NCBI GenBank assembly: GCA_030295235.1
Contig: AP026169.1
Coordinates: 372,001-436,000, forward strand
Origin: Fistulifera solaris
Lineage: Eukaryota
Length of the DNA stretch: 64,000 bases
Direction of reading: 5' to 3'
A program made the translations under genes and the position numbers. Below, in pieces: positions 34,307-38,996 of the stretch. The notes beneath the pieces are model-generated. The model did not search any database, had not been told where the DNA came from, and saw nothing but the letters and a program-made list of their open reading frames with translations. Position 1 is the first letter of the stretch. Each line of letters starts with the position of its first letter.

Positions 34307-35678
34307 TTAGAAAATCTTTGTGTACTGGCCTTTCTGCAAATAGGCAACTGGTTTCTGGCCTCCTGCCATGATCCATTTGTTTAACTCGATTTTCGCAACC
34401 CCGGTGCTGGCGATTTGTTCTACAACGACACCTTCTCCATACTGGGTGCTGACCTTATCTCCTACCCGCGCCCAAGCACTTCCTTTGGCGATTTGACTGT
34501 GCGCATCTGCTTCGTCAGCTGCGGCCAGAGCGTTCTGAGTGACGCCCATTTTGTCGAGAATTCCATACACGACTTTCTCCAGATTTAAAGTGTAAAAATG
34601 AAGAACGGGTGTGGTTTTAGAATCTATCAAACCTTGACACATTTCGGCACCGAATGTGACGCCAAATTCTTTCACCGCTTCAGCGTCATCTTTGATGGCT
34701 TCCATCTTTTCGTCCAAGGATTGCGGAACGCGAGTCTTGCAAAATTGTGTCATCTTTCGGAAGCCAGCATAAGCGTTGATGCACATGATCCCGGGGACAA
34801 TCGGACACTGGATTCCCCATTTGCGGCAGTCGGCAACGAAAGTTGTAAAAATGGTGACATCAAAGAACATTTGTGTGATTATGAAATCTGGAAATGGGTC
34901 GGAATAATGGTGAGTGTTTCTGTATTCATGAAGTACTTGGATACAAATTTGATAATTTGCTACTAACCTGCTCCCGCATCAACTTTCTGCTTCAAATAAT
35001 CCATCTCTTTCTTGTAGTCAGCTTCTAGGCAGCAGTATGTTTTCCCATCAAAATGGCTCGACCGGGCTAATTCTTCCGGTGTCAATGTCGACGGGTCGGC
35101 GATTTCGGTAATAGCATTTGGGTGACCTTCCGGATACCCAGCTACAGAAATACCGAAGTCATCTCCAAACTTCTCCCGAATAAACTTCACCAGATCCAAG
35201 GCACAGTTAAAACCTCCTTCGGCCGCTTTCCATTCGGTCTCGCCGGCCGGTGGGTCTCCGCGCAAAGCCACAATATTCCGGATACCACCATCCTTCGCCT
35301 TCTGCAACGCTTTGTAAATAGCTTCCTTCGGATCGACATTTTCACCCAAATTGGTGCAGGTCATGTGTAGATTCGCCAAATGGCCCGTGTTTTGTGCATG
35401 AAGAGCGAGATCGAGACTGAGTTCCGCCGTGCTTCCGCCGGCACCCCACGTCATATCGGTAAATGCAGGACTCAATACATTCTTCATACGATCCATACGA
35501 CTGTGTAGATTCTAAGGGAACAGAGAAAATCGTGAGAACATATTATGAATGTAGTAGGCCCTCGTACAATGATGCAACCCACCTGGACACCGACATCGCT
35601 TCGCGGCGGAAAATATTCTAAAGAAATCAAAGGCTTATCACCGTCGTGGTTTGTAAGAATGTCAATAATCTTTGTCAT
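34307..35678 (-). CDS. MTHFR: Methylenetetrahydrofolate reductase
   Basis: SLEYFPP, TWGAGGST, HMTCTN, NIVALRGDPP, VAGYPEGH, DFIITQMFFD, LHFYTLN. Introns 35512-35582 and 34888-34967. Confidence 0.95.
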
Positions 35679-36078
35679 GGTAGTTATTTAGCTTCCTGTG
35701 TTTTCAGTCAAAGAATAGATGGATGGATTGAATGAAATGGTTGATCCTTTGGTCGAATGTCCAATGCCGGTAGAAAGGAAAAAAATGGGGAACACTCGTC
35801 GTCTTCAATCATCGTGAGGGTTATGCGTGTGAGCTCGCGGTAGTCTGTCTTCCACTCAAAATGTACAATCTGCACTATTGCACGTTCCAAGCCGAAACCC
35901 GGATATGGATATCATGCTCGTGAATGAACTATCAGTCGTGGGTGGAACGTATTTCGCCTACGTATTGTGAACGCGCATCCATCATAGTGAAAAACACTGA
36001 CTCCCAGATGATGCATCAAGAAATTGTAAAATACTCCAAATTACTTTCGACATGAAGTCTCGTATTCTTCTAAGTATC

Positions 36079-37727
36079 TTATCTTGAATCAAACGGCAAA
36101 GAGCCGTCCGATTTTCCTTGAATTCTTGACAGAATCGCTTTTTGAACTTGATCGTAGGCATCCAACGCACCCAATGCTTCCAGATTTTGTAAGCCTTGTT
36201 CATTGAGTCCTCCCGGAGTTTGTTCGGCAATGAGTTGATCAAACCCATTGGGGTCCTTTTGTACTTGCACGGCATCCTGTACCATCGAGTCGTATAAACG
36301 ACCCACGAGGAAACTCGCTTGATCGCGAGCAATGCCCTGACGAACCAAAAACTCCCGATTGTTTCGCAAGACGCCGTAAAGGATCCCATCAGGCACGTCG
36401 TGACCATGAGAGCCGACATTTGTTGCGCATCACTCGCCTGTACACAACCACCGAGTGCTTCGCACAGGTCCGTCAGAACCGGTGGATCTTTTTGTGTGGG
36501 AGTCAATAAAATACATATACCATTGCATCGGGCGACAGCAGGCAAACAAATCATTTTGAACACGCGTTCCGTAGGCAACTGGGCGTCACGGCAGAGGTCT
36601 TCGATGGTGGATGTGGAAACGAGCGACACGAGAATGTGTCGATTGGCATCGAATTTCAACTTTTGTAACACAGAAGAAGTTTGCTCCGGCAAGACACAAA
36701 GAAAGATGATATCAGCCGTGTCGACGACTTGTTGATTGTCATCGTGAATCGACACCAAATCAGGGAACGATTTTTGCAGTGCCGAAGAACGTTTCTCGGA
36801 TCTTCGCGAAACGGCCAAATGAGATATCGGTACACAGTGTTGTGTCGCTAAACCTGTAGCGATTAGAGGTGTGGCTTTTTCACTAGAACTAGTCACTTCA
36901 CTAGAGTTGAAAATTTCACTTTTTCACTTCACTCACTTTTTACTCCACTTGATTCACTAGAAGTGTACCATGTCTACGTAACGCCTACGTGTGACATGAA
37001 CGGTGCAAAAAACTATGGCAACATGACACAAATGGAATAAGAAGCGATAGCAAATAATAGCTACTTATCTAGTAACTTAAATTGCTTCGCCTATTTTCAC
37101 CAATGGTCAGTCCACAGGGTGCCAGGTTATACTTCAATTTCAGCTGAGTCTCCAGTGTGGTCCCTTTCAATTTTGTGCGAGCTTCAAAGCAAGGCCACAA
37201 CTCGAGAACACTCTCTCCGAAGCTGTTGATGTAGCGCAAACACCTAGCCATTTCCTAGCAACCATTGAGAGGAGGGAACTCTTTCCTATTACTCCCGGGA
37301 GTATCGTGCATCCGGTGTCAGGACACAGCTAATGACTTGTACACTTTACACTATACAGATATCAGTACCACTTTTCACTTTTTCACTTTTCACTTCACTA
37401 GAATGACTTGGCTCACTAGTCACTTCACTAGAGTCCATTTTTACCTCTAGCCACACCTCTAGTAGCGATAGCGGAAGCAATCGTTCCAAAGCCCACAAAG
37501 CCGATCCGCTGAGGTGAGGTGCTTTCGCTGTCGTCGGACGGTGAATGATATAGGGTTGTGAATTCCGCTTCAGGAGGAGACATTTGTGGACGAGGTAAGG
37601 TTCGTGTATGGATGTGAAAGGCTTCTTGTTGAGGGATGAATGATGCTAACAAAATTACCAGAAAAGCGCACGATGAGCTTATCAGAGGAGTCATGGTCGA
37701 AACGAAACGAATCGAAGTCTTCTGCAT
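36079..37727 (-). CDS. Pyrroline-5-carboxylate reductase-like protein, plastid-type presequence, interrupted by a hAT-like element
   Basis: Rossmann motif IGFVGFGTIASAIAT|GLAT, split exactly at the insertion; ADIIFLCVLP; EQTPGGLNEQ. Presequence ends QEA^F. One frameshift near 36385. Confidence 0.85.
36864..37461. mobile_element. Non-autonomous hAT-like DNA transposon (MITE-like), 598 bp
   Basis: Perfect 13-bp TIR TAGAGGTGTGGCT (36864-36876 / 37449-37461), 8-bp TSD GTAGCGAT (36856-36863 / 37462-37469), dense subterminal TCACT repeats at both ends, no transposase. Confidence 0.93.
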
Positions 37728-37952
37728 TGTTATTCTCTTTTTCGATTTTTTCAATTCGAGGGTTTTGGGGGAGGCGAAAAGTTGAAGTTCCCATGTCGGA
37801 TACTATCGCTCGTACCGGCACTCGACAAAGAAGTTCAGCTTTGTTGTTTGTTGACATAGAACCCCTATTTCTAGCCCACCAAGAACAGTGTATGGGAATT
37901 CTATTTTACAAATTATGAGTGGCAGTGAAAATCATAAAGACTGAGAAGCTCT

Positions 37953-38996
37953 TCAATCTTGACTTTCCGTGAAGCGCTGGAATTCCAGCTCTTTGGGGAG
38001 CAGGCGATTGGCTCCTCGTTCCGCTAGGTACTTGCACCAATCGCCATACTGTGCAGGACGCGCATAGTCCAACGGTGTGAACCCTCTCTTGTCTTTTGTG
38101 TATAATAAATCGGGGCAAGCGTCGAGTAGCTCATCAATCACTTGAAAGTTGGGACTCGAAGTCCAGCACGCATCGTGCAAGGAGGTTCTTCCGTAATCAC
38201 AACACACTTTGCAGCTGAGACCGGCCTCCTTCAAAAGAAATTGAACGATTTCCAGGCAGCCTCTCCGACAAGCCGTGTGAATAATCGAATCGCCAAATTT
38301 GTTCGCACATTGCAACTGTCGACCCGCATTGTAAAAGTCTCGCAAGGTCTGAAGATCGTTCTCGCGCAGAGCTTTTATCACATCCATTTCGTAAGCTTTG
38401 ACCACATCCTCCGTTACTTCGACAAAAAAGCCTTTCATATTGAGAGCCTCAAACGTTTCGTACACGTAACCCGCCTGCTCTATCATTGCTTTGAGTACAG
38501 AATCGGGCTTGGGTGCGGTGTTTGTTGGAGCGCTCGAGCGTGGAGATTGGTGTATGCAGGTAAGGCCGTCGCTGATTTTGGGCATGGATGTTGTGAGTCT
38601 GGAGCTTTTAAAAGCATGTAGTTTTGCGCGATGTGCTATAGCCGCAGATTCGGAGGCGAGTGAAGCAGTAGAAGCGCTATGACTGACTTTTCTTGAGGCT
38701 AGCTCGATGGCTCGGTTCAACTCGCTTTGGGGTACAGCAACGCCAAAGTTGGCTCTTTCCAGAGCTTGGGAAGCCATGTTTTCGGCTTCTCCTTCTGAAC
38801 TACTCGTATCTGATTCATCAGAGAGGGATGAACCGCACGATGAGGTATCGGCCCGAGGCTGCTTACGTCTCATGTTTTCCACCAATTGCTCGACAGCCAG
38901 TCGTCTCTTGCGAGCCGCCACGGAAGAATTCATCGATGTACCAGTTATTATTGCGCCAGGCTGGAATTCGGGTAGACTAGCATTGCGATACATCAT
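37953..38996 (-). CDS. Ankyrin-repeat protein
   Basis: NKFGDSIIHTACRRG, DYGRTSLHDAC, DKRGFTPLDYA. Confidence 0.9.
   Translation of the reverse strand: MMYRNASLPEFQPGAIITGTSMNSSVAARKRRLAVEQLVENMRRKQPRADTSSCGSSLSDESDTSSSEGEAENMASQALERANFGVAVPQSELNRAIELASRKVSHSASTASLASESAAIAHRAKLHAFKSSRLTTSMPKISDGLTCIHQSPRSSAPTNTAPKPDSVLKAMIEQAGYVYETFEALNMKGFFVEVTEDVVKAYEMDVIKALRENDLQTLRDFYNAGRQLQCANKFGDSIIHTACRRGCLEIVQFLLKEAGLSCKVCCDYGRTSLHDACWTSSPNFQVIDELLDACPDLLYTKDKRGFTPLDYARPAQYGDWCKYLAERGANRLLPKELEFQRFTESQD

Follow-up and report, generated by a model that had tools for sequence, protein, structure and literature searches.

A recent nonautonomous hAT insertion with candidate splice sites at its ends probably truncates one of two P5CR-like gene versions in the diatom Fistulifera solaris

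In the raphid pennate diatom Fistulifera solaris, a 598-bp DNA transposon of the hAT type interrupts a coding exon of a gene for a pyrroline-5-carboxylate reductase (P5CR)-like protein, within the 64,000-nucleotide (nt) stretch of DNA analyzed here (assembly GCA_030295235.1, contig AP026169.1, positions 372,001 to 436,000 of the forward strand; hereafter the window, from whose first letter all positions are counted). The present study suggests, with a probability that we put at roughly 0.65, that this recent, nonautonomous insertion truncates one of two P5CR-like versions and is tolerated through redundancy. Read in this way, it would be an ordinary recent transposon insertion disrupting one of two gene versions, useful mainly because it points to a hAT family recently active in the lineage of this diatom and can serve as a marker for telling the two versions apart. 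An earlier reading of the sequence alone (the original prediction) had described a hAT-like element in a coding exon whose ends form in-frame splice sites, and had proposed an intron gain, with a knockout allele as its caveat.

The element is sharply delimited. A 13-bp terminal inverted repeat (TIR), TAGAGGTGTGGCT, has two perfect matches in the window, inverted with respect to each other, and no others, and a perfect 8-bp target-site duplication (TSD), identical at 8 of 8 positions, flanks both ends, so that the predicted 598-bp structure with its TIRs and 8-bp TSD stands exactly as drawn, at 36864–37461. Because the 13-bp TIRs and the 8-bp TSD are both perfect, we regard the insertion as recent and canonical; the combination of perfect TIRs, perfect TSD and a transposase remnant is far beyond chance. 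The window holds a single copy of the element, whose parts are as follows.

36864..37461, minus strand (that of the transposase remnant and of the host gene): nonautonomous hAT element of 598 bp, an internal-deletion derivative, identified by its TIRs, TSD and transposase remnant.
36864..36876, no strand assigned: TIR at the low-coordinate end, TAGAGGTGTGGCT on the plus strand, an exact match that pairs with the other TIR in predicted folds.
37449..37461, no strand assigned: TIR at the high-coordinate end, an exact match on the minus strand; its sense strand carries the candidate donor G/GTGTGG (here and below, a slash marks an exon edge or an insertion point).
36856..36863, no strand assigned: TSD copy 2, GTAGCGAT on the plus strand and ATCGCTAC on the sense strand, the two 8-mers being 100% identical.
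37462..37469, no strand assigned: TSD copy 1, 100% identical to copy 2 at a spacing of 606 nt.
36888..36907, no strand assigned: subterminal 20-nt motif ACTAGTCACTTCACTAGAGT, copy 1, an exact repeat.
37415..37434, no strand assigned: the same 20-nt motif, copy 2, an exact repeat.
37096..37271, minus strand: remnant of the C terminus of a hAT transposase, comprising some 60 terminal residues split between two frames by a frameshift near 37180–37184, located by tblastn.

Several lines of evidence place the element among the hAT transposons, whose TIRs are short and start with the consensus YARNG and whose target preference follows the consensus nTnnnnAn. The TSD is 8 bp long, with GTAGCGAT on both sides, and the terminus begins with TAGAG, which fits YARNG. 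In addition, positions 2 and 7 of GTAGCGAT are T and A, respectively, on either strand, in agreement with the target consensus, a fit that as a single site is weak evidence. An internal open reading frame (ORF) on the minus strand, 37167–37328, contains ARKWLGVCATSTASERVFSSCG, and the 53-amino-acid ORF scored 19.9 bits (E value 6e-4) against Pfam PF05699, the hAT dimerization domain, just under the cut-off of 21.4. A protein database search with the element ORF returned 11 proteins of 131 to 725 amino acids, 11 of 11 carrying PF05699, with 79–93% identity across some 29 residues and one named as coming from Fistulifera solaris; those that match the remnant at 90–93% over 29 amino acids are 446 to 725 amino acids long. 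When three of these proteins (P0049, P0054 and P0055) were aligned to the window by tblastn, each gave two high-scoring segment pairs, at 37271–37185 (90–93% of 29 amino acids) and 37179–37096 (57–64% of 28 amino acids), with combined E values of 5e-17 to 9e-17, and the same three queries found no further significant hAT similarity in the 64 kb. Thus, the hAT assignment of the original prediction is strengthened by the 8-bp TSD, the TAGAG terminus and the C-terminal remnant.

The PF05699 transposase is present as a remnant only, and since the element contains no intact transposase it is nonautonomous. Having kept its two termini, the subterminal repeat arrays and, of the transposase gene, the 3′ end, it is an internal-deletion derivative of an autonomous hAT transposon, the counterpart of maize Ds-del. 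One relative of 725 amino acids, P0059, appears from its sequence to be full length, and has an N-terminal Cys/His pattern (CELC...H...H) that we read by eye as a zinc finger. The two copies of ACTAGTCACTTCACTAGAGT near the element ends lie on the same strand, in direct and not inverted orientation, within arrays of CACTAG and GTGAAG-type repeats. These arrays may be subterminal repeats that bind the transposase.

The interrupted gene and a discrepancy within it are the following.

36079..37727, minus strand: host gene, a P5CR-like NADP oxidoreductase, identified by PF03807 and homologues.
36378..36380, no strand assigned: A3 homopolymer in which the window is one base short relative to contigs of public runs, causing an apparent frameshift in the host gene.

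The coding sequence (CDS) runs from an ATG at 37727 to 37462, is broken by the element, and continues from 36855 to a stop codon at 36079–36081. The encoded protein matches PF03807, the N-terminal NADP-binding Rossmann domain, with 37.4 bits (E value 3.9e-9; cut-off 21.6), and reaches 19.2 bits against the P5CR dimerization domain PF14748, under its cut-off of 25. A protein search over the range of 172 to 548 amino acids found 48 homologues, the best of them 93–94% identical; those with a named source belong to Seminavis and Fragilariopsis, both raphid pennate diatoms, and JGI gives relatives the name pyrroline-5-carboxylate reductase. We call the gene P5CR-like because PF03807 is reached, PF14748 falls below its cut-off and the relatives carry that name. 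On the minus strand, the insertion point lies within the conserved motif GFGTIASAIAT/GLATQ, across which homologues read GFVGFGTIASAIATGLATQ without a break: in 7 of 7 homologues fetched the site is uninterrupted, with the pattern G-x-G-T-I-A-[AS]-[AS]-I-A-[TK]-G-L and the reading IATGLATQ, as it is in the closest database proteins (93–94% identity). These uninterrupted homologues place the element inside the conserved Rossmann motif region of the exon, splitting it at IAT/GL as had been predicted, and by sequence comparison the insertion is specific to this lineage. The search over 172–548 amino acids yielded no protein identical to the window copy (best 94%), and one with the ORF of the N terminus, which continues into the element, gave 7 candidates and 0 significant matches over 68–217 amino acids; among proteins of these two ranges there was neither a truncated nor a spliced gene model.

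Independent sequence evidence was drawn from contigs of four public sequencing runs (X1–X4; 28 of the 84 aligned pieces are listed), and a contig was counted as bridging a junction if it had at least 31 letters on each side. All aligned contigs carry an additional base after 36377/36378 (depth 28 of 28 in X1, 13.4 of 13.4 in X2 and 27.8 of 27.8 in X4), and homologues at this site read GSFYGVLRNN, from which it follows that the apparent host frameshift near 36378 reflects a base missing from the A3/T3 run of the window. Element aside, this gene copy is intact. Conversely, a T6 run at 37746–37751 is one base long in the window relative to every aligned contig. The chromosome-scale assembly of F. 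solaris was made from nanopore reads only and polished with nanopolish, and has a GC content of ~46% (bioRxiv 10.1101/2021.11.10.468027); that of the window is 46.2%. Many adjacent same-strand ORF pairs in the window overlap slightly, and homopolymer errors may affect other genes in it.

The two 1-bp homopolymer errors, at 36378–36380 and 37746–37751, are also what could be cited for an assembly artefact, in which the long-read assembler would have misplaced the element into the gene. This is the least probable of the explanations considered, since an independent contig of X1, spanning 37432–37701, crosses from exon 1 into the first 30 nt of the element with 0 differences from the window, and a perfect TSD is the signature of real transposition. 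The contig falls one letter short of the bridging rule and ends where the sequence turns repeated. Run X1 is like genomic DNA, with 30 of 30 bins covered, intergenic DNA included; the junction at the low-coordinate end of the element is absent among the matches listed for it.

X1 also contains a second version of the gene, which differs from the window at 28 positions in 341 nt (~8%). The two versions, one equal to the window and one ~8% different, are seen in X1 at window positions 36100–36750 and 38100–38550. Such a pattern fits two subgenomes or very divergent haplotypes. F. solaris is described as an allopolyploid with 9007 homoeologous gene pairs (PMC5935921), and we infer that the two P5CR-like versions are homoeologues. 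Collectively, these observations suggest how the insertion could have been tolerated. A Ds-like hAT derivative would recently have inserted, by a cut-and-paste mechanism, within the first third of the P5CR-like CDS, and the second, ~8% divergent and uninterrupted version would have supplied the lost function. Translation of a transcript that runs straight through the insertion would most likely give a truncated, inactive protein because the first in-frame stop codon, a TAG, begins 31 nt into the element; the sense strand reads ...GCT ATC GCT AC/T AGA GGT GTG GCT AGA GGT AAA AAT GGA CTC TAG. The knockout allele that the original prediction listed as a caveat is in this respect the better-supported reading, given the second version in X1 and the closest proteins, which read through the site. 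On the same reading, the GT and AG dinucleotides at the element ends would be incidental.

Those dinucleotides are the basis of the principal alternative, and the candidate sites are the following.

37443..37457, minus strand: candidate 5′ splice sites GAG/GTGTGG (intron start 37456) and GAG/GTAAAA (intron start 37444), from the sequence.
36848..36866, minus strand: candidate branch-like CTAAT (36866–36862) and candidate 3′ splice sites CTACAG/ (ending at 36854) and TTTAG/ (ending at 36848), from the sequence.

Donor-type GT dinucleotides occur at offsets 5, 7 and 17 of the element. The GT of the candidate donor lies in the TIR, and both acceptor AGs are host bases beyond the TSD. The four donor–acceptor pairs would define introns of 603, 609, 591 and 597 nt and alter the length of the coding sequence by a net +3, −3, +15 and +9 nt, respectively, each pair keeping the frame without stop codons; the 603-nt version reads ...ACT AGA G/GT TTA..., which would insert one arginine (IAT-R-GLAT). 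The CTAAT motif spans the last bases of the TIR and the first bases of the TSD, and its branch-type A lies 9 nt from one AG and 15 nt from the other. As descriptions of the minus strand, the predicted donors, acceptors, frame-keeping pairs with their single added arginine, and branch-like motif built from TIR plus TSD all proved accurate.

The existence of such sites is not clearly beyond chance. With the host flanks fixed, the element was mononucleotide-shuffled 5000 times and in-frame, stop-free GT...AG pairs were counted in the end windows used for the real element. Of the 5000 shuffles, 3112 (62%) contained one such pair or more, the eight pairs observed were reached or exceeded in 338, and the four observed pairs with a length change of at most 15 nt were reached in 232. 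Moreover, the two donors form an AGAGGT repeat with 12-nt spacing and the acceptors lie 6 nt apart, so that the fourfold agreement in frame amounts to a single one-in-three coincidence.

The candidate sites were also compared with three local introns, one supported by RNA (35582 to 35512) and two deduced from ORFs. A broader local profile built from ORF pairs gave 2392 candidate GT...AG combinations, too ambiguous to use, and was dropped. The pyrimidine fraction at −20 to −3 is 0.65 and 0.59 for the two candidate acceptors versus 0.82 for the RNA-supported intron and 0.76 and 0.88 for the other two, and the candidate introns, at 591–609 nt, are ~8 times as long as the three local ones (68–80 nt). 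When the fold of the sense RNA is predicted, the minimum free energy and the centroid structure each contain a 13-bp stem made by the TIRs; the z-score for the whole sequence is −0.99, which is not significant. According to this model, the stem would bury the donor carried by the TIR.

Two further runs, X2 and X3, are RNA-like, as indicated by a poly-T loose end at 36053 in X3, where a contig ends in a poly(A) tail, and by an exon-junction loose end at 35513. Both contain contigs with 9 to 14 differences from the window as well as contigs equal to it, and transcription of the 3′ part thus appears to extend to both gene versions. Coverage in X2 and X3 is nil over 36742–37813, which comprises the element and exon 1, and the two runs hence have no bearing on splicing or on expression across the insertion; coverage resumes in X3 in the bin 37814–37947, and X2 has none upstream of 36741.

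Certain findings weigh against simple loss of function. Beyond the element, this gene copy shows a single defect, the 1-bp homopolymer discrepancy that every aligned contig contradicts, and for this reason it does not look decayed in the manner of an old pseudogene. Its 3′ part is transcribed, because contigs of X2 and X3 match the window copy with 0 differences over 36053–36712 and end in a poly(A) tail. With 338 and 232 of 5000 shuffles reaching its two counts of in-frame pairs, the element falls in the upper tail of the distribution, and four GT/AG pairs would restore the frame while changing at most five residues. Lastly, exon insertions of the maize hAT element Ds are reportedly spliced, to judge from the titles of papers of 1988–1994, one of which is said to speak of "de novo synthesis of an intron."

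The alternative to which these points lend weight is that the spliceosome removes the element as a new intron, from a TIR-borne GT (37456 or 37444) to a host AG (36854 or 36848), leaving an in-frame mRNA, such as that for IAT-R-GLAT, and an enzyme with full or partial function: a single intron gain from a hAT transposon, like the maize Ds alleles. We consider this possible but doubtful. The sites are present, with 4 of 4 pairs in frame and without stops, and the RNA-supported intron of a neighboring gene has a similarly nonconsensus donor, CAG/GTGGGT. The otherwise intact gene copy and the identity of its 3′ part to the RNA-like contigs are compatible with it, as are the maize titles, which reportedly tell of Ds splicing from exons. 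However, none of the contigs listed for X1–X4 joins across the element, those of the RNA-like runs stopping short of the site, and in-frame pairs arise in most shuffles. The acceptors have a weak pyrimidine tract, only 9 nt separate the branch-like A from the first AG, the intron would far exceed its local counterparts in length, pairing of the TIRs would sequester the first donor, and the Rossmann motif may not tolerate an extra arginine in its first helix. The stronger form of this proposal, that splicing from the TIR GT to the host AG beside the TSD is efficient and yields a functional reductase with one additional arginine, such that a diatom would present a hAT intron gain very close to its moment of origin, with the second, uninterrupted version as its "before" state, we judge to be unlikely by a further step.

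The maize Ac/Ds system is a close parallel. By their titles, none of the papers listed in a literature search dealt with a hAT element of a diatom. Its insertion alleles (Ds-del and Ds1; adh1-Fm335, sh2 and wx alleles) share with the present case a hAT element, an 8-bp TSD, a coding exon as target and cryptic splice sites at the element ends. The two differ in host, a plant versus a diatom, and in the sequence of the TIR, and splicing is said to have been demonstrated for Ds, whereas the sites described here are candidates. If in-frame splicing did occur, the insertion would be a clean, datable case of a DNA transposon giving rise to an intron in a stramenopile. Such a case would still add to a phenomenon already known from maize Ds and from catalogued hAT introners, and would reveal no new one.

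The transposon family is not confined to this locus. Loose ends of X1 contigs at 36864, 36857 and 37461, at or no more than 7 bases from the element termini, continue into unrelated flanks, with two distinct low-end flanks and one high-end flank among the matches listed, and for this reason at least two further copies exist. Several X1 contigs over the element differ by 2-nt indels. The contig of another copy that aligns from 36857 has a flank sharing at most 7 bases with this TSD before diverging fully, and the shared bases (36857–36863) may reflect chance together with the hAT target preference. In X4, a metagenome, contigs match only the ends of the element (36864–36992 and 37331–37461), with loose ends at 36863 and 36864 and other flanks; their internal sequence differs from that of the element, breaking at 36992 and 37331, and they may be other deletion derivatives or full-length elements of environmental relatives. 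Metagenome scans with the 20-mer of the left end and with the subterminal 20-mer each gave 0 loci.

One account defines introners operationally as families of spliced introns that resemble one another and lie in unrelated genes; it retains families with four introns or more and gives copy numbers of 5 to over 2,000 (PMC9860276). According to a 2025 survey, transposons that generate introns come from most superfamilies, and its Dataset S2 includes hAT families, such as family 1 of Salvia splendens, with 24 copies and PF05699, and family 14 of Panicum virgatum, with 12 copies, a 16-bp TIR, an 8-bp TSD and the entry "co-opt both" (PMC12130899). Such catalogued hAT-type families with 8-bp TSDs lend some plausibility to a single intron gain in F. 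solaris. The present element resembles the introners of Gozashti et al. (2022, 2025) in being a gene-borne DNA transposon that has TIRs and a TSD, a GT close to one of its ends, and an AG located at the TSD or past it; in contrast to those families of spliced introns, it is a single exonic copy in the window, whose splicing is a candidate only. That it is one fresh member of an introner family in the strict sense, which would have made many introns genome-wide, we regard as very improbable. Further copies with other flanks are found in X1 and X4; nevertheless, the 64 kb hold only one copy, the X1 loose ends amount to only two low-end flanks and one high-end flank among the matches listed, and in the species table of the survey (supplement file 6) Fistulifera solaris stands at 0 introners and 0 families (PMC12130899).

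Pairing of the TIRs bears on one other mechanism, the spliceosome-independent excision termed SOS splicing, which is triggered by paired inverted repeats, has AKAP17A, CAAP1 and RTCB as its factors, and has been reported in C. elegans and human cells (PMC12779559). The resemblance lies in exonic insertions of DNA transposons and in recognition through TIR pairing, and the 13-bp TIRs of the present element do pair as base-paired inverted repeats in both predicted folds. The systems differ in that animals and other transposon families are concerned there, and a diatom hAT element, known from sequence, is concerned here. We think it still less probable than membership in an introner family that the element is removed from the mRNA in this way: the process is described there for animals only, with Tc1, Tc3, Tc4 and HSMAR2, and the main text of that report does not contain the word hAT (PMC12779559), the TIR in F. 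solaris is short, and the contigs listed offer no junction that would correspond to such excision, those of the RNA-like runs ending before the site.

Two observations concern the surroundings of the insertion. The N terminus of the host protein (37560–37727, minus strand) contains a hydrophobic stretch, CAFLVILLASFIPQQ, upstream of the second methionine, at which the database models P0001 and P0002 begin; to judge from its composition, the stretch could be a signal or plastid-targeting peptide that these models miss. On the same strand, the neighboring MTHFR-like gene has the RNA-supported intron used above for comparison, of 71 nt (35512–35582), with the donor CAG/GTGGGT and the acceptor ...CCCTTAG/, its support being exon-junction loose ends in two contigs of X2 and one of X3. 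This gene probably has a second intron of 80 nt at 34888–34967 (CAG/GTTAGT...TTTCCAG/), deduced from the joining of ORFs.

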